A stretch of 27,938 nt of DNA from a virus (lineage: Duplodnaviria > Caudoviricetes): positions 1 to 27,938 of IMG/VR virus record IMGVR_UViG_3300005512_000260; one strand, 5' to 3'. A program made the translations under genes and the position numbers. Below, in pieces: positions 5,910-25,964 of this stretch; position 1 is the first letter of the stretch, and each line of letters starts with the position of its first letter. The notes under the pieces were generated by a model. The model did no database searches. It was not told the DNA's origin and saw only the letters and a program-made list of their open reading frames with translations.

Positions 5910-6948
5910 CAGCTTCCTCATCAAATGCACTGTCAAGATCTTCGTCACTGTCAGTCTCGCCGCTCTTCTGGACGGACTTTTTCTGCCTGGTCGTGGCAGC
6001 GTTGAGCTTGTCCTTCTTGGCTTTCGCCTCGCGCTGATCCTTGGCAACACGTTCAGCTTCGGCCTTCTTCTCATCTGCGGCGGCCTTGGCTTCGTCCGTC
6101 TTGGTCTCAACACCGGTCTCAGACTTGAACCGGTTCAGAATCTGCGCAATGTCAGCCGCATCGGTCACGGCGTCCATGTACTCCTGATACCGCTCGGACT
6201 GCTTGTTGCCCCACTCCTGGAAGTCGTCCGACGCGATAATGTCAGCCGCATCTGGGTGGCCGTGCTTCTCATCGCCGAGAGTCTCGTACAGAGCCTGCTC
6301 TGCAGCAGCCTGAGCCTGAGATGTGATCATCTCGCGCACCGGGGTGATCTCGCCCGTCATCTTGTCGAACATGTGGCCCATCATGGCCTTCATCGCGTTG
6401 CTGATCTCGGGGAACATCTCGACGAACTCACCCATGGTCTTGGGCATCGGGGCCTCTTCGGTCCCGCCGTCACCGATCTCCATGTCCTTGAGAGAATCGA
6501 GGGCACCGTCCAGAAACTCTGAACGAGCCGTGTCCTTAGCTTCGGTTGCGGCCTTCTCGGCAGCAGCCTTCTGCTTTTCGGTGGGCTCGGTCGGCTTCTT
6601 GGCTGCGGCAGCTTCACGTTCCCGGGCAGCCTTGTCCTCTTCGGACTCTGCGGCCTTGGCAGCCTCTGCAGCTTTCGCCTCTTCGTCGGCAGCAGCCTTC
6701 TCGACAGCGGCTTTCTCTTCGGCTTCCTTCTCTTCGGGAGTCTGCTCTTCAGCGGCAGCAGCTTCTGCTTCATCAGCAGCCTTTTCCTCAGGGGTCTGCT
6801 CTTCGGCTGCGGCAGCCTCAGCGGCAGCTTCTGCGGCCGTGGTGTCGCCGTCGTCCTCGTCAAATGCAGCGTCAAGCTCGTTCGCCTCTTCGGGCGTTTC
6901 GAGTCCGCTATCGACTACTTGCTCATTGGCTTCTGTGTCGTCTGGCAT
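5902..6948 (-). CDS. Capsid scaffolding protein
   Basis: Highly acidic, Ala/Glu-rich coiled coil upstream of the capsid gene; HPDA.DI..S.DFQEW motif seen in scaffolds of this capsid type. Confidence 0.75.
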   Translation of the reverse strand: MPDDTEANEQVVDSGLETPEEANELDAAFDEDDGDTTAAEAAAEAAAAEEQTPEEKAADEAEAAAAEEQTPEEKEAEEKAAVEKAAADEEAKAAEAAKAAESEEDKAAREREAAAAKKPTEPTEKQKAAAEKAATEAKDTARSEFLDGALDSLKDMEIGDGGTEEAPMPKTMGEFVEMFPEISNAMKAMMGHMFDKMTGEITPVREMITSQAQAAAEQALYETLGDEKHGHPDAADIIASDDFQEWGNKQSERYQEYMDAVTDAADIAQILNRFKSETGVETKTDEAKAAADEKKAEAERVAKDQREAKAKKDKLNAATTRQKKSVQKSGETDSDEDLDSAFDEEADA

Positions 6949-6977: not shown

Positions 6978-7054
6978 TGGTAGCAGGAGTAGGATTTGAA
7001 CCTACGACCTCCAGGCTATGAACCTAGCGAGCTCCCGGACTGCTCCATCCTGCA
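6978..7054 (-). tRNA. tRNA-Met(CAT), initiator-like
   Basis: Full cloverleaf TGCAGGA TG GAGC AGTCCGGGA GCTC G CTAGG TTCATAG CCTGG AGGTC GTAGG TTCAAAT CCTAC TCCTGCT ACCA; encoded CCA; 1:72 mismatch and A11-U24 as in tRNA-fMet. Confidence 0.93.
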
Positions 7055-7898: not shown

Positions 7899-8351
7899 TT
7901 AAGCAGTGATGGCGTTACTTCCGCCCTGCTGGACGATCGATCCGCCTTCGATGAACACCAGGCCAAAGCCATTGGTGACGAGAATGCCGCGGTTGGCTAC
8001 TCGGGCAGCCCGAAGCTCGGCGCCGGTTTCATTGCGAGAGATAAGCACGAACGGATCTTCCCCCACCGGCGTCACCTTGCTGAGATCCTTGTTGATCTCG
8101 GCAGCTTCGGCAGCATCCTTGGCGTCCTGCTTTTCTTTGGCAGCGGCTTCGGCAGCATCAGCTTCAGCGGCTACTTCTTCCGGAGTCTGCTCGGCAGCTT
8201 CGGCAGCATCCTTGGCGTCCTGCTTTTCTTTGGCAGCGGCTTCGGCAGCATCAGCTTCAGCGGCTACTTCTTCCGGAGTCTGCTCGGCACCTTTGGGAAC
8301 TTCGACGGTCTCTTCGGGCTTCTGGTCTTCGGCTGGTTTCTTTGCGGACAT
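7899..8351 (-). CDS. Acidic hypothetical protein with a duplicated 31-aa segment
   Basis: ORF track; GGAGAG RBS; lies in the head operon. Confidence 0.75.
   Translation of the reverse strand: MSAKKPAEDQKPEETVEVPKGAEQTPEEVAAEADAAEAAAKEKQDAKDAAEAAEQTPEEVAAEADAAEAAAKEKQDAKDAAEAAEINKDLSKVTPVGEDPFVLISRNETGAELRAARVANRGILVTNGFGLVFIEGGSIVQQGGSNAITA
8097..8289. repeat. Perfect 93-bp in-frame tandem duplication
   Basis: 8097-8189 is identical to 8190-8282, plus 7 further matching bases. Confidence 0.95.
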
Positions 8352-11997: not shown

Positions 11998-12028
11998 AAA
12001 AAAGAACCGCCCCGAAGGACGGCTCTTA
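11998..12028 (-). terminator. Intrinsic terminator after tmRNA
   Basis: GAGCCGTCC-TTCG-GGGCGGTTC followed by T6. Confidence 0.9.
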
Positions 12029-12034
12029 TCGTGA

Positions 12035-12429
12035 TGGTGGACCTGGCGGGGGTCGAACCCGCGTCCGCAAACGGTTCCATCAATCACTCTACGTGCGTAG
12101 GTCCGTGAAGTGGACCAATCAAGGGGCGACTGGCGATCCCGGTAAGGATCTCGTGACAGTCGCGACTCCACCATCCAGACTGTTTAACCTATTGACACCG
12201 CTGGAACGTGTCGCCGCTATACCCGAGCGGTCTACGAGGATCTCCCTGCGTGGCGTTTAAGGCTTTTGGTACTCCCAAGGATAGCTTCCCTCAGCCCGAT
12301 CAGCGTATCTACGCTGCGATATCAAGTGCTTCAGCATTTGAATTGTGAATCGGCTTGTTAACGAGGCCAACCGATCAACCCCGGCACGCATGACTGCTTC
12401 CACGTCTCCGTCGAAACCAAGTCAGGCCC
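12035..12429 (-). ncRNA. ssrA: tmRNA (one-piece, 395 nt); tag (A)AEALDIAA
   Basis: 5' GGGCCTGACTTGGTTTCGAC and 3' GACGCGGGTTCGACCCCCGCCAGGTCCACCA form the acceptor stem with G3.U70; pk1-like region followed by tag frame GCT GAA GCA CTT GAT ATC GCA GCG TAG (12335-12309). Confidence 0.93.
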
Positions 12430-12449
12430 ATAGATTCAAAGATCAGAGG

Positions 12450-12519
12450 CTCGGGGCGTTGGACTCGAACCAACATCTAAGCCGCGCCAGCCTGCTCTGA
12501 CCAATTGAGCTAACCCCGA
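12450..12519 (-). ncRNA. tRNA-like element with a 3-nt anticodon loop (pseudo-tRNA or tRNA mimic)
   Basis: TCGGGGT TA GCTC AATTGGTCA GAGC A GGCTG GCG CGGCT TAGAT GTTGG TTCGAGT CCAAC GCCCCGA G; acceptor, D and T arms intact; followed by CCT rather than CCA. Confidence 0.8.
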
Positions 12520-12596
12520 GTTGCACGAGCGCCATGACTGACGTTAGGCGTGAGCCAAATTGCAGGACCCCGTGCGTGAGTCATCATTCAAGCAGA

Positions 12597-12797
12597 TCAG
12601 CCGCCGGGTGTCAACTTCGCCCTGACTGCTGCGTCCTTCGCTTCAAGAAGCTTTCGCAGCGCAACAGTGCGTTCGGGCCCAGGCTCAACCGTCTCCACCA
12701 AGGCAAACGCCAGATCCCCGAACGGGGCCGACACTTCCTGTAGGTGCGGCGGCAGGTGGCCGTACTCAAACCATTTCAACATTCTGTCCGGTTCCAT
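12597..12797 (-). CDS. Small helical-hairpin protein, possibly Acb2/Tad1-hairpin-like
   Basis: Widespread phage family pattern F.Y.HLP.HLQ.VS.PF..LA...PERTVALRKLLEAKDAAVRA; strong RBS. The functional link is inference. Confidence 0.55.
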   Translation of the reverse strand: MEPDRMLKWFEYGHLPPHLQEVSAPFGDLAFALVETVEPGPERTVALRKLLEAKDAAVRAKLTPGG

Positions 12798-12815
12798 CGT
12801 CTCCTCCTCTTTGGG

Positions 12816-13445
12816 TTAATCGTACTCTTCGTTTCCTCTTCGCCACCGAAATTGATCCATCCCCGCCACGCAGGCCATCATTGCTTGCCTCGCCGGATAG
12901 AAAAGAGCGCGGTTCGTTTGGTAGGCTCGCTGCTGCGTGATGAAACCACCGTCCTTGTTGACTCGAAGTTTCCCCTCCATCGCCATCATCGATACCAGGT
13001 GCGATACGTCTGCTTCCTCATCCCAGATTGTTTCTGGCAGCACCGGCTTCGGCTTCACCATCGCGCTGCGCCTGATGTCCCGCATGTACCGCCCGTAGGT
13101 GGCCGAGGAGTCGCGCCAGTAGAACTTGCTGCAGAAGTATTGCGACCAGCACTTATTCAGCCATGGCGCCAGCCCGCGGTACTTGATCTTCCCCGTCGAG
13201 TCGATGATGTGGTCGATGCAGGTGAAGGGAGTCTCCTCGAACATCGTGGCCACACCGGTCCGCAGGTTGACACCCAGGATGAGAGCGTAGCCCTCGATGC
13301 GCTCCTGGTTGCCTTCGATGATGAGTGTGGGCCAGCAGAGCCCCCCACGCATGAGGTACTCGGCCGAGTTCTGGTCCTTGAAGTGGAGCGTGGTCGTGTC
13401 GCGCTTCTGGTGGTACGTGCTTGCTTCAGGTTTCTCGATGGGCAT
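12816..13445 (-). CDS. Hypothetical phage protein (GGLCWP motif)
   Basis: ORF track frame; GGAGG precedes ATG 13445. Confidence 0.7.
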   Translation of the reverse strand: MPIEKPEASTYHQKRDTTTLHFKDQNSAEYLMRGGLCWPTLIIEGNQERIEGYALILGVNLRTGVATMFEETPFTCIDHIIDSTGKIKYRGLAPWLNKCWSQYFCSKFYWRDSSATYGRYMRDIRRSAMVKPKPVLPETIWDEEADVSHLVSMMAMEGKLRVNKDGGFITQQRAYQTNRALFYPARQAMMACVAGMDQFRWRRGNEEYD

Positions 13446-13614
13446 CAGTCGCCTCCGCATGTAGGTCCATCTTGATCATATCCAGCACGCCGATGGTCTC
13501 TGCGTAGCTGAGGTCTGCCTCCTGCCGCCAGTAGTTGATGCGGGCGGTGAGATCCTCGAATAGCACTTGGACGCTTGGGGTGTCTGGCATCACCATCTCC
13601 TCGTTCGCATCCAC
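13426..13614 (-). CDS. Small hypothetical phage protein
   Basis: Common motif YWRQEADLSYAETIGVLDMIK.DL; start may instead be ATG 13590. Confidence 0.65.
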   Translation of the reverse strand: MDANEEMVMPDTPSVQVLFEDLTARINYWRQEADLSYAETIGVLDMIKMDLHAEATDAHRET

Positions 13615-14246: not shown

Positions 14247-14947
14247 CGCGGGCACTCCCTCCAGTACCTGCCTGGATCTGTGTGCATGAGATTTATCTCT
14301 TCCATTGTCGCGTCAAGTGACGGGCACTCCTCCTCGAACGCCCCGTCGAGATCCTTGTCGCCCAGAGCGAGGCACTCCTGAAGCTGCTCCCAGGTTGTGA
14401 CGTCCCACGGTGGAATGTTCTTGCCGTCGGTGGTCTGAACTCTCATGCCGTTGATGGCAATACATGGGTCATGAACGGAACCCTCGGTGTAAAGTTCGAC
14501 GTCCCAAGTATGAAACGGAACATCCACCAACCAATGACGAGGCAACCACTCTGGATGGTTCTCAAAGTCACAAGACGTCTCATCTGCCTCAACCACGCCA
14601 GAACACACCCAACAGCGCTTGACTCGCTCCTCGGGTGCGTCGAACTCCTGCGGGGGGATGGCGCACTCATCGGGAAGCGGAATCGGCTCGTCGGACCACT
14701 GATCGCTCGGGGTGTGCCCATAGACATAGATGGATGACCGGCGGTGTACGTGCGCGAAGTGCGCCTTGATGATCTTGTCGCCGACGTCCTCAGCCGGGTG
14801 GAACTCGACAACCATCGGTGTGCCGTCGGTGCCGTTTCTAAACCAATACAACCCGCTCTCGATTGGAACCTTGTCAGTCCATTTCATATTCTCTCTCTCC
14901 TCGTTGGGATCTACGGGAACGATACGCTCAGGGCGCTCGTCGGTCAA
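14243..14947 (-). CDS. Hypothetical mosaic protein
   Basis: WTDKVP.ESGLYWF module and a CxxC; start uncertain. Confidence 0.65.
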   Translation of the reverse strand: MTDERPERIVPVDPNEERENMKWTDKVPIESGLYWFRNGTDGTPMVVEFHPAEDVGDKIIKAHFAHVHRRSSIYVYGHTPSDQWSDEPIPLPDECAIPPQEFDAPEERVKRCWVCSGVVEADETSCDFENHPEWLPRHWLVDVPFHTWDVELYTEGSVHDPCIAINGMRVQTTDGKNIPPWDVTTWEQLQECLALGDKDLDGAFEEECPSLDATMEEINLMHTDPGRYWRECPR

Positions 14948-14966
14948 GAGTCTTTACACGCCGTCG

Positions 14967-16505
14967 TCAAACCAAAGCGTTGTCCCATATGTCCGCCTGC
15001 GAGGGTAACGATGCGGTGTCGGCAAGCTCACCTATGTGCTTGTCAACGAGAGACTCCTTTGCCACTGCGAAGTACCGGAAGGATGATGATGGATGCTCGG
15101 CCGCATCGTGGCGAGGCTTGTTCTTGTAACATCCCCGCTTCTCGTCCCATTCCTTCCTGTACGAACTTAGCCCATTGATCCCGTCTGAGCACGTTGCCTC
15201 GTTGAATGTACAGTGCTTGAATACCCGTCTGACGGCATCAATTCCATCCGCGATGGGGAGCTTCGGCGCTGTCTGGAAATGGATACCGTATTTCGTCGCG
15301 GCCGTCTCGATTCTCGACACCCCTGTAGTCCATGATCGCACAGCAATATCGTGCGGCGCCCAGTACTCGTCATACTCATAGCCCTTTTCTTTCATGTAGT
15401 CGAAGTAGTGGCCCATGCCCTCGCCTGATGCGATATAGCAGTCGATGAACCTGAACTCCCCGGGAAGCTCCTGCCACATCCAAAGGGCCGTGTCGTCAGC
15501 AACCCCGATATCGAAAACGCTATGGACTGGCACCCCGGGAACGTACGGGTAATCCCCGATGCGCCCATCTTTCCGAGCCTGACTGATTTGCTTCTCGTAG
15601 TAGGCACCTTCGATCACGGTCTGGAAGCACTCGTCGAGGTCTGCGGGAAACTCTTGGAACATGTACGACCCCTGGTTCTCCTTCATGGTGACGTACCATG
15701 CCTTCTGCTCAGGGGAGAGCGTTACCCCGAGCCGATCCTCAATCTTTGCGAAGTATTTCTCATCTACGTCCGTGATGACTACGTACTTGGTGTCTCCGGG
15801 AGGGAGTCGGCAATCTGGATCTGTTGTCCACCCAGAGAAAATGATTTTGAAGTCTAGCTTCGTGAGTGGTCGCCCAGACTCCTCCTTGGTCTTGGCTTTC
15901 ATGCAAAGGTCGTAATACGCACCATACGCTCCCTCGCTGGTGGACTCTATAATCACCCTACCGTCCGAGGGTACGGCCGGGAGCGTTCCTGTGATGATCT
16001 CCCGGGCCCTCTGTGGGTATGATGCTGCTATCTTGCCCATCTCGCTGCAGTGCAGGAAATTCAGGGTCGCAGAACGGAATGACTGAGCCACCGTGATGCT
16101 GCTTCCGTTCCTGAACGACACAAAGCCGCCGGCATCTTGGCGCCTGGTGGTGGGGTTGCCCCTGAGTAGTGACGGGGGCATGCGGTCCAGAACATACAAG
16201 ATCTTGTCGATGTAGATCCGCTCGGCATCAGCCGCTGTGTGGGCGAGAAAGCCCGCCTTTTTGTCTCGATTGAAGAATGCGTAATCAAGCCCAGCGATGG
16301 CGAAGAAGGTCGTGAATCCTTTCTGCCGGCTCTTGGGGACGATGGTCCTCCACCACAGCGACTTGAACGCGGTCTTCTGCGCGTCGTTCATCCGGAACTT
16401 GACGCAGTTACCCTTCTTGTCGATACAGTGGTAGAGATTTTGCAGCCTCCAATACACGTCCCCGAGCTGGTCGACAACCTTAATGTTCGACATGGACACC
16501 GGCAA
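14967..16505 (-). CDS. terL: Terminase large subunit
   Basis: KSRQKGFTT Walker A, LHCSE Walker B, IIEST coupling motif, FQEFP, nuclease FDIGVADDT and APHD motifs. Confidence 0.95.
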   Translation of the reverse strand: MPVSMSNIKVVDQLGDVYWRLQNLYHCIDKKGNCVKFRMNDAQKTAFKSLWWRTIVPKSRQKGFTTFFAIAGLDYAFFNRDKKAGFLAHTAADAERIYIDKILYVLDRMPPSLLRGNPTTRRQDAGGFVSFRNGSSITVAQSFRSATLNFLHCSEMGKIAASYPQRAREIITGTLPAVPSDGRVIIESTSEGAYGAYYDLCMKAKTKEESGRPLTKLDFKIIFSGWTTDPDCRLPPGDTKYVVITDVDEKYFAKIEDRLGVTLSPEQKAWYVTMKENQGSYMFQEFPADLDECFQTVIEGAYYEKQISQARKDGRIGDYPYVPGVPVHSVFDIGVADDTALWMWQELPGEFRFIDCYIASGEGMGHYFDYMKEKGYEYDEYWAPHDIAVRSWTTGVSRIETAATKYGIHFQTAPKLPIADGIDAVRRVFKHCTFNEATCSDGINGLSSYRKEWDEKRGCYKNKPRHDAAEHPSSSFRYFAVAKESLVDKHIGELADTASLPSQADIWDNALV

Positions 16506-16508
16506 CGG

Positions 16509-16808
16509 TCACCCCCAGGTTCCGTCTTTGAAGGCCCAGAAGCAGGTGCATGTCCACGCGACGGCCAAGAGGGCCCAGACGATGGCGGCGATGATGATGA
16601 GGATCTTGGAGGGGGTACAGACCTCGTGGTCGTCGGTCGCAACGGACTTGGGGTGGCGACCCTCCTGCCAGTTCGGCTCCTGGTCCATCCCACTGAGGTC
16701 GCTGAACTCGTGATGCCGGTACTCCCCACACCTGCACCGCTGCTCTGTCGCGATGCACCACGGGTTCAGGCGGGTGTCTTTCCATATGTGGCGGTGGAGT
16801 AGGGTCAT
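16509..16808 (-). CDS. Hypothetical membrane protein with Cys/His motif
   Basis: ATGA overlap at 16805-16808; C-terminal hydrophobic helix. Confidence 0.6.
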   Translation of the reverse strand: MTLLHRHIWKDTRLNPWCIATEQRCRCGEYRHHEFSDLSGMDQEPNWQEGRHPKSVATDDHEVCTPSKILIIIAAIVWALLAVAWTCTCFWAFKDGTWG

Positions 16809-16960
16809 ACGCCCCCCGCACCGTTCATCATCAGATAGCCACACCCTATGGCCAGAGTAGCAATCAGTGCAGCCAAGAACGGGAGCCAGTCCTTTGTGAA
16901 CGCGCTGCCTGTCGCCGCCGAGAACCAGATTGACACGAGAACAAAGGCAAGTGGGCTCAT
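16805..16960 (-). CDS. Small two-TM protein (51 aa)
   Basis: Manual translation MSPLAFVLVSIWFS...; GGAGG RBS; ATGA overlaps at both ends. Confidence 0.6.
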   Translation of the reverse strand: MSPLAFVLVSIWFSAATGSAFTKDWLPFLAALIATLAIGCGYLMMNGAGGV

Positions 16961-17466
16961 GATATTTCCTCCTCCTGAATACCGACCGACAAGCAGATCC
17001 CGCTGATCATCTTCAGATAGGCGCTGGCCCGCTCCGACGCAACAAGACGCTCCTCGGTCTCTTTGGCCGTGAGATCATGATCTGGTTTCATCCTCATGGC
17101 GTCTATGGTCGACTGCGAATAGCGGCTGACCTTCCTGAGGTAATCGATCAACTTATCCCGGGAAATGCGCAAGTACTCGCGATTCTCGCCTCTCTGGTTG
17201 ATGTCGTCTGCGTGCATCCGGAGGTGAGACGTCATGGCCTGAGCAAGGTCAGAAAGCAACTGAGGAGAAGCGTCGTCGACTGGGAGCGGCACAACCATTT
17301 TCTCTGGCTCGTACTTCACCATCGTAAGCGTAGCACATACGCCACAACCATTGGCACTCGCTGGGCCAAGTGGCTGCCATCCGTCCTCAATCAATCGTAC
17401 CACATCAACATTGATTGAGAGCGTGTCGTCTCTGATAATTTTGCATGCGATGATCTTTCCGCTCAT
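16957..17466 (-). CDS. Hypothetical protein with DUF1737-like N-terminus
   Basis: V..LIEDGWQPLG motif; GAGGA RBS. Confidence 0.65.
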   Translation of the reverse strand: MSGKIIACKIIRDDTLSINVDVVRLIEDGWQPLGPASANGCGVCATLTMVKYEPEKMVVPLPVDDASPQLLSDLAQAMTSHLRMHADDINQRGENREYLRISRDKLIDYLRKVSRYSQSTIDAMRMKPDHDLTAKETEERLVASERASAYLKMISGICLSVGIQEEEIS

Positions 17467-17485
17467 TGGCGTTTTCCTCTCTCTG

Positions 17486-18202
17486 TTATCCTGTTTGAGG
17501 CGACCGCTGGTCTTCGGGCACGCGAGTCACGTCGTCAACGAACTGGGCGAAGATGTCCAGTTCCCGGTCCTTGTCGTCGTCGGACTTGTTGAATCCCATG
17601 ATCTCTGCAAGACACTTGACGGCAGCGATCTTCGACTCAAGCTCGATCTCGTCGAACTGTCGCTTAATGATGACGTTGCCGGCCTCGTCCCACTGGATGC
17701 GAGTCTTCATCTTCTTGAGTGCCGCCTGGTTGAGGGTCTCAGGTCCGACGTCATACATAGAAACTCCATCGTCACCCATGGTCAGGAAGTCCGAGTGACG
17801 TGCTCTGATCATGTCGGTGAGTATTTGGCAGCACTCCTCCTTGGAGGCCACGCCTTTATCGGCCAGCTTCTCTGCCTGAACCTCTCGCAAATGATCAATT
17901 CTGGCCCGAAACTCAGCTTTTTTCAGCAGTCTTGATGCGTTAGATTCGGCAGCGTGCCCCCGCGCTTTGTAACCTGCATTGATGTAACACTCTGCTGCAA
18001 CGGGAGTTGAGACAGAAAATCCTCCTTTGGCGTTAGCGGTCAGCACTTCTCCATTGATGAGGTTCTGCGCAAACGCCTCCCGGAGTCTGTTCTTCAGGGG
18101 TTTTGACGGGTCTTGGGGCGGCTTCGGATTTTTCGTGCGCGGCCGGCACTTGGGCTTTGCTCGACCCTTCTTCGCTGGGCCTCGGCGCTTTTTGGCTGAC
18201 AT
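17486..18202 (-). CDS. terS: Terminase small subunit
   Basis: EAFAQ...YINAGY...A.SNASRLLK..EFRARI HTH; SK.ECCQILT.M.R; IELESKIAA..CLA..MG. Confidence 0.85.
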   Translation of the reverse strand: MSAKKRRGPAKKGRAKPKCRPRTKNPKPPQDPSKPLKNRLREAFAQNLINGEVLTANAKGGFSVSTPVAAECYINAGYKARGHAAESNASRLLKKAEFRARIDHLREVQAEKLADKGVASKEECCQILTDMIRARHSDFLTMGDDGVSMYDVGPETLNQAALKKMKTRIQWDEAGNVIIKRQFDEIELESKIAAVKCLAEIMGFNKSDDDKDRELDIFAQFVDDVTRVPEDQRSPQTG

Positions 18203-18287
18203 GGTATGCTCCTTTGCTCATTGGCTGGTGGTTTCTACCTGTGGTTTGAAGCGTACACCCCTAGATGTGGTGGTTGCAAGGGGAATC

Positions 18288-18638
18288 CTAGAGGTTTCTG
18301 GACCTCAGATATCTATTCAGCCGCGACCAGTAGAAGTCTGGCTGCTTTGTATCAAGCCACACGAAAGCCGACATTAAGGCATCCGAGATATTCTCATACC
18401 GCATGGTGTCGTCGTTCTCGATAGGAAGCTTCTGGCGCTTGCGCTCATCCAGTGCCTGCCTGTGGTAGGGACTCGGCAGTTTGGCTAGTGCCTCAGGAAT
18501 GGTCATCCCCAAGGGCTCATATTCCATCCTGCACTTCATGCGTCCGCACTCGCAGATTGCCGTGGCGTTGTCGTCCTCGTCAGAGTCTGGGTGCGTTCTT
18601 CCACATACGTCGCATAGTAGCATTCTTTCCTCAGTCAT
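18288..18638 (-). CDS. Hypothetical zinc-ribbon protein (116 aa)
   Basis: CDVC...CECG; start reassigned to ATG 18638 (ATGA overlap). Confidence 0.65.
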   Translation of the reverse strand: MTEERMLLCDVCGRTHPDSDEDDNATAICECGRMKCRMEYEPLGMTIPEALAKLPSPYHRQALDERKRQKLPIENDDTMRYENISDALMSAFVWLDTKQPDFYWSRLNRYLRSRNL

Positions 18639-18946
18639 GTTCTTTTCCCCCTGTTGTGCCCGTATGGGCGCCAGTAGTCGTAGTCTCGTGCCCTGTCCAG
18701 CATACGCCATATGTCCCGAGCGTCCGTCGTGTAAGCGTAGAATCCGATCTCCTTGAGGTGAGCCACCACCTCCTTCACGATGTCCGGAATGGCCTGCCTG
18801 ACCCCCACTCGGATAAAGCGTGGCGCCGGGATGTCGTTCAGGATCGCGAAGTCCCTGAGGATTTTCATGCGGTCGGCGCTGAATCCTGGCCGGCGAGTCG
18901 CCTTCCACTTGGTGATCCGGAGGCCGCGGTACCGTGGCTCTTTCAC
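18635..18946 (-). CDS. Hypothetical protein
   Basis: Stop/start overlaps at both ends; purine-rich RBS. Confidence 0.6.
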   Translation of the reverse strand: MKEPRYRGLRITKWKATRRPGFSADRMKILRDFAILNDIPAPRFIRVGVRQAIPDIVKEVVAHLKEIGFYAYTTDARDIWRMLDRARDYDYWRPYGHNRGKRT

Positions 18947-19647
18947 CCCTCCCCCTTTCCCTGCTCTGCTCCTTTGGCGGCGAGCGCCTTGCGCAACAAC
19001 ACATCGGCTGCATCGCTTTCAACCAGCGGTGAGTCATCGCAGTCATAACCCACCGACAGGTGAATTAGTGCGTCCTTCAGCGCCTCCCTCAGCCGCTCCA
19101 CATTCCCCCGCTGCATGTGCAGCTTTTCTTTTAACCGCTCGCAGTCCCCAGCCAGCACCTCGCGCTCCTCCCTTGCTGCGTCGCGCTCTGCGATGAGATC
19201 AAGGTTTGCTGTGTGTTCGCTTTTGTGAAACTCAACCAGCCCGTTAAGCTTTTCGATCTCCTTCTTGTGGGTTACGCACTTCAGACATTCACCCATACGC
19301 CTTAGCGTGTTAACGGCAGATTCAAGCTCCGCAATACGGCCCTTGTAATGGCGCGACTCGTTGGCTCTTTCCTGCTCCATGCCCCTGAGTTGCGCCTCAA
19401 GCTCCAGATTTCTGCCCGTTGTTTCGCCGCAATTCAGTTCGGCTTCTAGTAGCTGGGCTTCGAGCTCCCTGATGCGCAACCTCAGCACGTCTGCCTCCGC
19501 GCTGGGATCGCCCGATAGTTCCGCTGCTGCCTGCGCTGCGTCGAACTCTGCCAATGCTTGCGGGTCAGTTTGCCAGATGTCGCCACGCTGACATAACGGG
19601 CACGCCCTCACCTCAGCCCCCGCCCCGCTTGCTTGTTGCTTGCTCAT
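18943..19647 (-). CDS. Coiled-coil hypothetical protein
   Basis: CPLC then repeated RIxELE heptads; ead/ea22-like composition. Confidence 0.7.
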   Translation of the reverse strand: MSKQQASGAGAEVRACPLCQRGDIWQTDPQALAEFDAAQAAAELSGDPSAEADVLRLRIRELEAQLLEAELNCGETTGRNLELEAQLRGMEQERANESRHYKGRIAELESAVNTLRRMGECLKCVTHKKEIEKLNGLVEFHKSEHTANLDLIAERDAAREEREVLAGDCERLKEKLHMQRGNVERLREALKDALIHLSVGYDCDDSPLVESDAADVLLRKALAAKGAEQGKGEG

Positions 19648-20357
19648 GATTGCTCCTTAGATGTCCCTGAATTGTTGATTCTTCTGAAAATACCATCAAC
19701 CGCATTAGCCTTCGCCGCATCTGGGTTAACAAACGGGATTGTGTCGTAAAGCTCTAGCCCGTGCCACGCGAACCATGCAATCATCTGCGAAGTGGGGCAA
19801 TCTCCTTCCCCCAGATTCATCTCAACTATAGCCCACTGCACGCGATTCATGATGCCCTCACAACCACGCAGCACCGACATCTCATTACCCTCAACATCGA
19901 CTTTTAACCCGATAGTCCCAGAAAGATGCAGTTCATCTACACGAATCATCTGAACGGGTTGGCCGGACCCCGTTTTGCTCGCTCCCTCGTTCCCGTCCAT
20001 AATGTGGTCAAAGAGCACTGTACCTCTATTCTCCCCGGCCGCCGCTCGGATAATCCTGCATCCTCTGTTTGCGGGAGCGGATACCCGTCCGGGGTCAATC
20101 AGCACGAGATTGGCATCAGGGTTTGACAGCCAAAGCGCGGGCGTCCCCCAGCACACACCGACATCAACGATAGTATCAATTTCACCGTATCCGCCAATTC
20201 TTCGGGCCATGTCTGGCAATCGAGAGATATTCCAGCCTCGACTTAAGTGCGCCCATTTTAACATTCGCCACCACCATGGTCGGTCGCCCATCCCGTAACG
20301 GGGGTCGCACATCCAGTAGTTTTCCCACCTCGCCCCGCCTGCTTGTTTATCGCTCAT
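19644..20357 (-). CDS. FkbM-family SAM-dependent methyltransferase
   Basis: IVDVG..WG, IDP, AAG, RVDEL and LKVDVEGNEMSVLRG motifs; GGAG RBS before ATG 20357. Confidence 0.85.
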   Translation of the reverse strand: MSDKQAGGARWENYWMCDPRYGMGDRPWWWRMLKWAHLSRGWNISRLPDMARRIGGYGEIDTIVDVGVCWGTPALWLSNPDANLVLIDPGRVSAPANRGCRIIRAAAGENRGTVLFDHIMDGNEGASKTGSGQPVQMIRVDELHLSGTIGLKVDVEGNEMSVLRGCEGIMNRVQWAIVEMNLGEGDCPTSQMIAWFAWHGLELYDTIPFVNPDAAKANAVDGIFRRINNSGTSKEQS

Positions 20358-20509
20358 GATTGCTCCTCGCTTCCGACCCACTCAAAACAAGCGGGCTGCA
20401 TACGATCATGTATCCCCGTGTCAACCGCGCAACGATCCCCGCGCTTGCGGTTGTTGCAGTTTCCGCAGCGCCTCGTTATCCGTAAGTCTTGCTCTTTGTC
20501 GCTAGTCAT
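20354..20509 (-). CDS. Small Cys-rich protein (51 aa)
   Basis: Manual translation contains RCGNC...C...ACFEW; ATGA overlap downstream. Confidence 0.55.
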   Translation of the reverse strand: MTSDKEQDLRITRRCGNCNNRKRGDRCAVDTGIHDRMQPACFEWVGSEEQS

Positions 20510-20516
20510 TAGTTGC

Positions 20517-20657
20517 TTACCATTTCTTCTTTATGAGGTCGTTTATTTCGTCGTTGGATTTACCGATAGTGTCGCAAACTCCAGACCAGTAGCCCCATTT
20601 CCAAAAACAATACAATCCCACAGGCACCAAGATTCCGGCTACACAAAACCCGATCAT
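20517..20657 (-). CDS. Small membrane protein (46 aa)
   Basis: Manual translation MIGFCVAGILVPVGLYCFW...; purine-rich RBS. Confidence 0.5.
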   Translation of the reverse strand: MIGFCVAGILVPVGLYCFWKWGYWSGVCDTIGKSNDEINDLIKKKW

Positions 20658-20682
20658 CCTCTCCCCCTCTCTTCATCATCCG

Positions 20683-20733
20683 CGCCAACCGATCGCCTAT
20701 GCGGACGTATTGCCGCATGGCTCGGTGTTATCA
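20683..20733 (+). mobile_element. Short attC-like site (tentative)
   Basis: CGCCAAC-5-GCC[T]ATGC-12-GCATGGC-5-GTTATCA; 51 nt, right spacer one base short. Confidence 0.35.
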
Positions 20734-20913
20734 TAATCCGCACCGCTTGTACTCAGCAACACAGGTCGGTATCAATTTTGCTGGTTTTAGCTCCATTTCT
20801 GTCACTTCCCACTCACTATCATCTCGCTCCATCGAGATCATGCGTCGGATCTGCTGCGATGTCATCGGGTCTGCCTCTGGTGCTCGTGTCACCCTGAACA
20901 GTTGACTTGGCAT
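20731..20913 (-). CDS. Small hypothetical protein
   Basis: AAGGA RBS; ORF track. Confidence 0.6.
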   Translation of the reverse strand: MPSQLFRVTRAPEADPMTSQQIRRMISMERDDSEWEVTEMELKPAKLIPTCVAEYKRCGL

Positions 20914-20924
20914 TTTGTTCCTTT

Positions 20925-21092
20925 CTATTCATCCTTACCATACACCCTCACAACCTCCTCAACCATCGCCCGCGTAAGGCAGTGCCGCCGACAAAGGGCG
21001 GCGACAGAACCGCCTGACAGGAACTCGCGAAGCAGCTTGCGCCTGAATCCAATGCGCAGGTGGTTGATATTGGGTTGTGGTTTGGGTGTCAT
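20925..21092 (-). CDS. Small HTH-like protein (55 aa)
   Basis: Manual translation ...FLSGGSVAALCRRHCLTRAMVEEVVR; weak RBS. Confidence 0.45.
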   Translation of the reverse strand: MTPKPQPNINHLRIGFRRKLLREFLSGGSVAALCRRHCLTRAMVEEVVRVYGKDE

Positions 21093-21124
21093 TGTTTGTC
21101 GCTTATTATCGTTAATATCGTGGA

Positions 21125-21349
21125 TTAGGGCTTGCTAGTAACGTAGTTGGGCACCACGCGGTACGTGAAACCGAGGATGCCGAAATCTTTGCGGCTTTGC
21201 TTTGCGTCAGCTTCGGCGAGCCGCCTTGTGCGAAATCTGTACTCTCCGCACGGATGGCCGCGCAGACGGACCTGTACGGAGAATGGGCCGTGCCCAACAA
21301 TCGGGTCGAGCGTACCCAAAACCCGCGCTTGCGTTGTCTCTGATTTCAT
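21125..21349 (-). CDS. Cassette-borne hypothetical protein
   Basis: AAGGA RBS and ATG lie inside the attC loop; ATGA overlap with the upstream gene. Confidence 0.65.
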   Translation of the reverse strand: MKSETTQARVLGTLDPIVGHGPFSVQVRLRGHPCGEYRFRTRRLAEADAKQSRKDFGILGFTYRVVPNYVTSKP

Positions 21350-21397
21350 TTGGTCCTTTCCGAGCGGGTTTCGGGCCGCTCACCCGTGGCGTTGGCG
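21292..21397 (+). mobile_element. attC: Integron attC recombination site (106 bp)
   Basis: R'' GCCCAAC, 5 nt, L'' GGT[C]GAGC, palindromic centre, L' GCTCACC, 6 nt, R' GTTGGCG. Confidence 0.85.
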
Positions 21398-21579
21398 GAA
21401 CGCTTCGCCGCCTGGTATCGCGCCCGCAGGCTGTCCGGCCTGTTGAGGATCGTCCCCGGCACGCGGTCGCCCGTCTTCTCGTCGCGCTGGTTGTTCAACC
21501 GCACGTACCGGCGCGGTTGCCGCTGCGACTGTTCACCGTACACTGCCCGCCTGATTGCCTTCGCCTTCTTCCCGTTCAT
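21346..21579 (-). CDS. Cassette-borne basic hypothetical protein
   Basis: AAGGAG RBS; MNGKKAKAIRR...RARYQAAK is a common phage small-protein pattern. Confidence 0.75.
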   Translation of the reverse strand: MNGKKAKAIRRAVYGEQSQRQPRRYVRLNNQRDEKTGDRVPGTILNRPDSLRARYQAAKRSANATGERPETRSERTK

Positions 21580-21614
21580 GTCTCTGTCTCCTTTCGTTGT
21601 GTTCCGATCAAAAC

Positions 21615-21675
21615 CGCCAACAAGAGCATGGAGCGCTACGGCGCTCCGCGCCGAGGCTCATGCTCGGCGTTGGAT
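21615..21675 (+). mobile_element. attC: Integron attC recombination site (61 bp, 59-be type)
   Basis: R'' CGCCAAC, 5 nt, L'' CAT[G]GAGC, CGGCGC-TCC-GCGCCG centre, L' GCTCATG, 6 nt, R' GTTGGAT. Confidence 0.9.
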
Positions 21676-21724
21676 TCTATCAGCTTTATCGCAGATGTGA
21701 GTTGCCCCGCCGTCGCTTGTCTCG

Positions 21725-21919
21725 TTATTCATCGTTTCCTTTCCGGGGCAACTGCCCCTGATTTCCTGCGTTCGACACACAACGGTTCAGCAGCCATGCC
21801 ACAAGTATTGCTGTGCCCTGAAACCATGTCCGTTCAATCGCCGTATTCCAATCGCCATCGTTTAGCGCCTGGTGCAAAAAATTTCCCGTCGTCAATCCAG
21901 CCCATGCCAACCAATTCAA
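21725..21919 (-). CDS. Small membrane protein
   Basis: GNFL.QA.....W.TAIERTWFQ motif; GGAGG RBS. Confidence 0.65.
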   Translation of the reverse strand: MNWLAWAGLTTGNFLHQALNDGDWNTAIERTWFQGTAILVAWLLNRCVSNAGNQGQLPRKGNDE

Positions 21920-25780: not shown

Positions 25781-25797
25781 GCATTACCTCCAAAAAG

Positions 25798-25888
25798 CCG
25801 AGCCCGACAACGCAGTGGAAACAAGGTGCAGAACAGTCGGTGTTGCGCCGCGCGAGTTCTTCCCCAGTGGCTCCGTTGTCGGGCTCGG
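25798..25888. repeat. 15-bp perfect inverted repeat with a 61-nt loop
   Basis: CCGAGCCCGACAACG...CGTTGTCGGGCTCGG; on the minus strand followed by CTTTTT and the RBS. Confidence 0.8.
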
Positions 25889-25964
25889 TGATTTGGCTGT
25901 GTCATGCTTTCCTGCTCTGCTGTTTTCTAGCGAGTTTCCATGCCGCTATCGTTACGATGTGTCT

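Follow-up and report, generated by a model that had tools for sequence, protein, structure and literature searches.

Introduction

Integrons are usually taken to be bacterial devices, lately viewed as stores of anti-phage genes, and the correct orientation of their cassettes is held to be essential. The integrase, IntI, favours the attC site's folded bottom strand and cuts it in the R' box, recombination of the top strand at R'' being a known side reaction that puts the cassette in backwards and silenced from Pc (PMC5027507). Excision is favoured when the bottom strand lies on the lagging-strand template (PMC5371416), and many host cassettes are anti-phage (bioRxiv 10.1101/2024.07.02.601686). 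IntI can also insert cassettes outside integrons, at short GWT sites termed attG, and small CALINs have been proposed to arise by such insertion (bioRxiv 10.1101/2022.09.11.507474). Among 10,705 phages, 17 CALINs have been reported, and of six phage attC sites assayed with IntI1 five proved active (Qi 2023, PMC9892861).

The window analysed here, a stretch of 27,938 nucleotides, is the whole of the IMG/VR record IMGVR_UViG_3300005512_000260 (G000), which is linear and 46% complete. An initial annotation had proposed that it carries an integron-type cassette array inside a phage genome, without an integrase, and that small phage-type accessory genes are shuffled through this array by a host or distant integrase. 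It had overlooked that both cassette genes lie antisense to attC. We describe below the anatomy of the array, its polarity and turnover, and the recombinase that could drive it.

The phage genome and the array

By its gene content, which includes terminase subunits, a major head protein, a head-tail adaptor, a replication initiator and an SSB, all on the minus strand, the window belongs to a tailed phage. The array sits between the replication and packaging modules, and its elements and neighbours are the following.

20683..20733, plus strand: third site with attC geometry; 5-nt L'-R' spacer, L pairs 7/7, no complementary left end
21085..21148, plus strand: primary insertion site in the phage backbone; AT-rich, not an attC; crossover between G21146 and T21147
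21147..21391, plus strand: cassette 1; 245 bp, gene body and attC1, ends complementary over 9 nt
21392..21669, plus strand: cassette 2; 278 bp, gene body and attC2, ends complementary over 8 nt
21292..21397, top strand plus: attC1; 106 nt with an inner region of 66 nt, bottom-strand extrahelical G
21615..21675, top strand plus: attC2; 61 nt, bottom-strand extrahelical C, crossover between G21669 and T21670
21125..21349, minus strand: ORF1 (cassette 1); 74 aa, antisense to attC1, no PHROG family
21346..21579, minus strand: ORF2 (cassette 2); 77 aa, antisense to attC2, no PHROG family
21658..21732, minus strand: 24-aa ORF right of the array; stop inside the attC2 L' box, no complementary R'' found to its right

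Window positions 21100-21800 have no DNA match among GenBank phages or PLSDB plasmids, and the array matches no Rfam family. A promoter and terminator scan gave four promoter-like matches where 3.6 were expected, which is chance level, the genes lying on the strand opposite to the attC top strand. The 24-aa ORF to the right is possibly a truncated gene. Elsewhere in the window a tmRNA (tag AEALDIAA) and two tRNAs (Met and Arg) are encoded at 12035-12429, 6978-7054 and 12448-12519, and an Ala/Glu-rich ORF contains a perfect 93-nt tandem duplication (8097-8282), with related repeats at 6540-6830. A long hairpin with 26-nt arms (25790-25896; z -4.3), which has AAC and GTT boxes without attC geometry, overlaps a 42-aa ORF that comes before a phosphoadenosine phosphosulfate reductase-like gene.

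The attC sites and the cassette ends

Both attC sites have the layout R''-5-L''(8, with the extra base at position 4)...L'(7)-6-R', with L pairs 7/7 in each, so that the geometry first read from the letters, including the extrahelical base in L'', stands. Likewise exact are the two reverse-complement pairs that had been pointed out, 21146-21154 with 21290-21298 (9 nt) and 21391-21398 with 21614-21621 (8 nt). With a 6-nt L'-R' spacer these are the sole sites of such geometry on either strand of the window; dinucleotide shuffling yielded a mean of 0.07 sites, and none of the 100 shuffles had at least two. When a spacer of 5 or 6 nt was allowed, at least two sites with 7/7 L pairs appeared in 4 of 200 shuffles and three sites in one, while none of the 200 had two sites that also possessed an 8-nt complementary left end.

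The bottom strands fold at -25.1 kcal/mol for attC1 (z -2.6) and -21.1 kcal/mol for attC2 (z -4.4), and the probability of a fold with the R and L boxes paired, from our own constrained-fold calculation, is 0.83 and 0.32, respectively. The modelled circle junctions are more stable, reaching 0.85 and 0.44. Since the top strands fold almost equally well (0.77 for attC1 and 0.30 for attC2), the call of attC polarity relies on the position of the extrahelical base and on the bacterial control. Across six members of the attC1 family compensatory change is seen in 9 of 28 pairs, most of it contributed by one divergent member.

As a proxy for IntegronFinder/HattCI we used a home-made attC covariance model, built from 21 other sites (18 bacterial and three from phage TJE1) that were chosen by our own geometry rule and excluded sites matching the search pattern. 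In the window this model recognised exactly attC1 (39.8 bits) and attC2 (37.7 bits), on the plus strand only, with the next match at 11.9 bits, in agreement with their annotation as attC. The site at 20683-20733 is weak (covariance model E = 1, probability of a recombinogenic fold 0.01) and may be a worn-out third attC or chance; another candidate, 21777-21840, was rejected on its folding (z -0.3).

It had also been suggested that each cassette would excise with paired R boxes. The ends of both are indeed complementary, but the left boundary of cassette 1 at 21146 is not an attC, so that this cassette would leave only through an event between the primary site and an attC, and only cassette 2 would be able to exit by attC x attC. 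The primary site, which we consider attI-like or attG-like, is marked as fixed by comparison with a sister phage (see below) and bears only a loose likeness to the first-cassette sites of the probable host class; a comparison of 20 left boundaries in viruses brought out no evident shared motif.

Cassette genes run against their attC sites

Both cassette ORFs run opposite to the attC top strand, in the direction of the phage operon and against the usual cassette polarity. ORF1 starts in the attC1 loop, in an ATGA overlap with the stop of ORF2 and with a purine-rich RBS-like motif, leaves attC1 by way of R'', traverses cassette 1 and then the GTT at 21146 (the left R' box), and terminates in the backbone, its stop codon being provided by the primary site. 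ORF2 passes the attC1 R' box, where AAC is read as Asn, and ends in the attC1 loop, its last 13-15 residues being encoded by attC1. The same attC thus carries the tail and stop of ORF2 and the RBS-like motif, start and 17-aa leader of ORF1. In five of the six viral contigs found through the attC1 motif (L009, L010, L012, L013 and L014, two of which share one body) the attC1 core with RBS-like motif, start and leader is fused in frame to other bodies, and the sixth has a divergent leader.

ORF2 is a member of a small phage protein family, and the nearest ESM Atlas clusters are 87-100% viral (scores 0.89-0.91). Of 23 loci with an ORF2 relative only L211, which is identical to the window, and L212 have it bound to an attC; the remaining 21 are plain genes, and the covariance model found no attC in the 14 of these on which it was run. 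This distribution suggests that ORF2 is a phage gene turned cassette. No direction of origin is claimed from the family tree, in which 0 of 25 branches were supported and a nesting of the cassette forms among plain genes accordingly found no support. The database protein P0001 is identical to ORF2 over 61 residues and then differs just before the R' box. The description of the cargo as phage-type is only partly shown, since neither ORF belongs to a PHROG family and, among inverted-cassette ORFs from other phages, only 11 of 56 received a PHROG name. As small, operon-coupled accessory genes between replication and packaging modules, the two cassettes likely encode dispensable modulators.

Inverted polarity in viral arrays

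One degenerate attC pattern gave 55 viral loci and 125 bacterial stretches, the latter from 3 of 64 parts of GTDB. Site-level rows with at least 6/7 L pairs and 250 nt of flank were kept, 10 viral and 14 bacterial rows with poorer pairing or less flank being dropped. In the rows kept, the adjacent frame is antisense to attC in 32 of the 45 from viruses and in 9 of the 114 from bacteria. At the level of cassettes 62 of 81 viral ones are antisense, 8 sense and 11 unclear, compared with 2, 58 and 8 of 68 bacterial ones. By contig, with the window excluded, antisense and sense stand at 28:5 with two ties in viruses (n=35) and at 1:37 with one tie in bacteria (n=39), a contrast with a Fisher p of 1.3e-13 between contigs that are not independent, the viral loci including six retrieved through the attC1 motif and 13 stretches picked by hand. 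The polarity score is a crude one, based on amino-acid composition, and miscalls cassette 1 of the window as sense; moreover, the first scanner fixed the L'-R' spacer at 6 nt and so missed the TJE1 sites, whence the counts refer to 6-nt-spacer sites only. Within these bounds inverted polarity is general in most of the viral arrays sampled.

Inverted ORFs are mirror images of those in normal cassettes, and the way in which they end also differs. Of 59 in viruses, 25 continue across the box, which then encodes Asn, 14 end on the TAA of the box, 14 within 40 nt and 6 further in, compared with read-through of the R box in 2 of 33 bacterial ORFs. A phase bias is seen at the R' end only, and the idea that inverted cassette bodies are multiples of three was rejected (length mod 3 of 27/18/17, n=62). 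In a complete 44-kb phage (G036; L202:9904-14624) ten inverted attC follow one another, three of them with near-identical cores. In phage P12002L (L209:29225-30023) a methylase gene lies between two attC of opposite orientation, a pair that is possibly an intermediate of cassette inversion.

Turnover of the array

A gene of the left flank led to a sister phage (L260/G632), which is about 100% identical to the window over 14640-19569 (4.9 kb), 99% over 12000-13605 and 91% over 20928-21154. The identity stops at 21154, six bases past the G/TT at 21146, and is followed by six unrelated attC cassettes, whose ends show complementarity in 8-10 of the first 10 positions and of which, by the coding margin of the survey, four are antisense and two unclear. 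The covariance model matched five of these six sites, all opposite to the genes, and the contig ends before synteny on the right side could resume. Left of the primary site (19648-20927) the two phages also differ, by other means. A 40-nt direct repeat (88%) lies there at two gene starts (19618-19657 and 20328-20367); the sister phage matches both copies and is without the methyltransferase module near them, which suggests that the repeat marks a second, attC-independent mosaic boundary. Used as queries for more relatives, a backbone gene retrieved only the sister phage and the 64-aa gene of the right flank only matches of 9-11 residues.

The unrelated first cassettes of the window (21146-21154) and of the sister phage open with the same 9 nt, each with a matching R''. 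Among 79 other viral cassettes just 2 start with the 6 nt that these two share beyond G/TT. Chance may account for the agreement, or the primary site could shape the ends of new cassettes.

The expectation that the same cassettes would turn up elsewhere with breakpoints at G/TT was borne out, for cassette 1 at the protein level. A relative of cassette 2 (88% at the amino-acid level) lies in a different, four-attC array in L212, with other neighbours on both sides, and DNA identity to the window drops at each of the two R' boxes. Run X2 contains a 411-nt contig that spans 21391-21673, differs there at 13 positions and continues for 128 further letters, most likely beyond 21673, while other run contigs match attC cores only. 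Similarly, the protein P0011 is 71% identical to ORF1, with leader and body kept, and diverges after the R'-encoded VPN. Two further loci, L005 and L007, have one cassette in common with a different left attC, and the attC2 core recurs near-identically in L005 with another gene body. Judged from these breakpoints, the cassettes are mobile. An excision joint or an empty site at the array, for which a search had been proposed, did not appear among the contigs of two runs, in which only low-share relatives are present.

Exchange of this kind might in principle be the work of phage or host homologous recombination, with the shared cores as short homologies, as at other mosaic boundaries, the attC sites being relics of past integrase events. 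The recurrence of the attC1 and attC2 cores at about 90% identity beside unrelated gene bodies would fit such a reading, as would the boundary repeat without attC (19618, 20328), where the sister phage departs from the window. Shared cores can, however, also be a product of top-strand (R'') recombination by IntI (PMC5027507), and the sister-phage breakpoint at 21146-21154 has no attC core. The complementarity of cassette ends over 8-14 nt in the 81 viral cassettes (selected by a rule of 8 or more) and the compensatory changes in the attC hairpin speak further against relics, which we therefore regard as improbable, though the best placed of the alternatives to an array still driven by an integrase.

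Recombinase and probable host

The claim that the array is without an integrase is correct for the record, in which a TIGR02249 search found no IntI and at least 6 kb on each side of the array are clear, but it applies to only the 46% of the genome that is present in the 27.9 kb. Across the 47 viral records with such sites TIGR02249 scored above cut-off in one, and 42, including 12 of the 15 that are at least 90% complete, gave no match at E <= 0.001. The one positive, a complete 39-kb phage-like record (G026; L195:16074-17096), carries the gene of a full IntI-family protein roughly 25 kb away from the single inverted cassette of the record, with no array found beside the gene, as well as two other tyrosine recombinases and a serine recombinase-like ORF. 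Four further viral records contain other tyrosine recombinases.

These data bear on whether a phage recombinase encoded in the missing half of the genome, rather than a host IntI, drives the array. The incompleteness of the record leaves room for such a gene, and the IntI of G026 and the tyrosine recombinases of four other records set a precedent; the want of any match in most records, near-complete ones among them, and the distance of the G026 gene from its cassette weigh on the other side and make a phage-encoded driver distinctly improbable.

The host is the likelier source, and its class is suggested by a link to the attC1 family rather than to this phage itself. Among the 120 matches listed for the SSB all five homologs with an organism name belong to Verrucomicrobiota. 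In 301 genomes of the class of MAG G048 (labelled Lentisphaerota) the single attC1 match is a CRISPR spacer in G146 (L230:1498-1531), which agrees at 34/34 positions with the attC1 core of three viral contigs and at 30/34 with the window; a search for attC1 in five hand-picked genomes gave nothing significant. The three viral contigs matched perfectly are unrelated, so that the recombination site doubles as a common immune target. TTC is the motif of type I-C CRISPR systems, and the flanks of the spacer matches do not show it. G146 has three IntI genes, and of the 201 genomes of its class that were searched 110 passed the cut-off, so that the look-up of intI, empty in the record, succeeded in the probable host class. 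Beside 27 intI loci of this class the first cassettes are sense in four cases and weakly antisense in one. On L232, a contig from a genome of the same phylum, a DNA methylase gene runs antisense to an attC2-like site.

How the array may work

Taken together, we hold it probable that the window carries a two-cassette integron-type array of genuine attC sites, at a fixed site in a tailed phage and with its genes antisense, likely driven by a host IntI and likely read from the leftward operon of the phage. The anatomy of the attC sites, the cassette ends, the other neighbours at G/TT, the array of the sister phage, the polarity and the presence of IntI in the probable host class all support this reading. 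The original suggestion of a phage cassette system using a host or distant integrase is thereby supported, the sister phage holding different content from the same G/TT.

In this scheme a host IntI would excise cassette 2 via attC1 x attC2, and circles would be inserted at attC sites or at the primary site at 21146, which perhaps began as an attG-type GWT site; cassettes could thereby be exchanged between co-infecting phages or prophages. The bottom strand, which IntI cuts in R', is here the coding strand, so that every attC travels together with the gene transcribed after it; this is what the breakpoints show. The attC would then act as a 5' leader of the following gene, able to bring RBS and start codon (as in attC1), and would give a tail and stop to the preceding one. 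Occasional top-strand events, which would reassign cores to bodies and invert bodies, fit both the recurrence of cores and the two divergent attC that flank a P12002L gene. Selection would retain the inverted polarity, as the phage operon would transcribe only such cassettes, and host cassettes that entered in the usual manner, through the bottom strand, would be oriented against it and remain silent. If the array genes are co-oriented with replication, the attC bottom strands would form the lagging-strand template.

The arrangement of stop, RBS-like motif and start inside attC1, conserved across phages, would also suit hairpins that are attC in appearance only and serve the phage operon as RNA elements in translational coupling, processing or attenuation. 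This leaves unexplained why the AAC/GTT boxes do not vary, why spacing and extrahelical base are as they are, why R'' is complementary to a GTT 150-230 nt away and why breakpoints fall at G/TT, and a model made from bacterial and IntI1-validated attC recognises both sites; as a sole explanation it is most improbable, although an RNA role in addition to the DNA role is possible. We give scarcely more than nominal credence to the arrays of window and sister phage being metagenomic assembly chimeras joined at repeated attC, for although both are metagenome-derived contigs, and attC boxes are where L211 and the X2 contig stop, as would happen at assembly branch points, both versions enter from 21146 a cassette whose far end is complementary (9 and 10 nt), each regains an open frame that terminates in the flank they share, and a chimera would itself require alternative neighbours at G/TT in the sample.

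The array of genuine attC sites driven by host IntI admits a bolder extension, which we put forward tentatively and rate as somewhat less probable than its negation. Many phages might possess a mirror image of the integron, with a fixed, attI-like backbone site, a hijacked host IntI and a separate pool of inverted cassettes made out of ordinary phage genes, attC being their portable module of 5' leader and stop. The polarity would insulate this pool from host cassettes, including anti-phage ones, and phage arrays would be a site of cassette making. Two observations bear on the origin of cassettes, namely that the ORF2 gene is a cassette in its closest relatives alone and a plain gene, free of attC, at the other 21 of the 23 related loci, and that many unrelated bodies are fused in frame to a single attC core. 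Were the mirror-image reading true, the genesis of cassettes would be open to direct test. More generally, if phages use bacterial recombination sites with opposite polarity, as they appear to do, integrase-driven site-specific shuffling would join the known causes of phage mosaicism.

Comparison with known systems

The closest described systems are the phage CALINs of PMC9892861, with which the window shares at least two attC within 3 kb, small cargo genes and no intI seen. The array is real, but as a phage cassette system it is new only in part, integrase-free phage attC clusters having been published with IntI1 assays (PMC9892861). The window differs from these in that its genes are antisense to and overlap the attC, in the fixed backbone site and in the turnover between near-identical phages. 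Antisense ORFs are not discussed in the main text of PMC9892861 or in the part of its supplement consulted. On re-scanning the phages of that study, the TJE1 array proved to be sense, that of ctTUS972 inverted, with 4/4 model matches opposite to the genes, and one P12002L site antisense to its methylase gene. In the literature searched, in which subscription journals are thinly covered, no report of inverted phage cassettes was found.

With SALINs and attG (Loot et al., bioRxiv 10.1101/2022.09.11.507474) the window has in common cassettes outside integrons and the probable action of IntI at GWT, the site at 21146 being GTT. It departs from SALINs in the reuse of one site in two phages with different arrays, in its phage-type cargo and in its systematically inverted polarity.

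Compared with a bacterial integron (intI, attI, Pc and array), the attC structure, the cassette ends, the G/TT crossovers, the primary site on the left and the variable content are alike, whereas in the window neither intI nor Pc is seen, no intI adjoins the array as it would in a complete integron, transcription would come from the opposite end and the ORF polarity is reversed. Integrase-free attC clusters in phages are known, while the inverted polarity appears to be undescribed in the literature searched; what the window adds is the near-isogenic sister phage, with its array replaced, and the CRISPR link to hosts that bear IntI.
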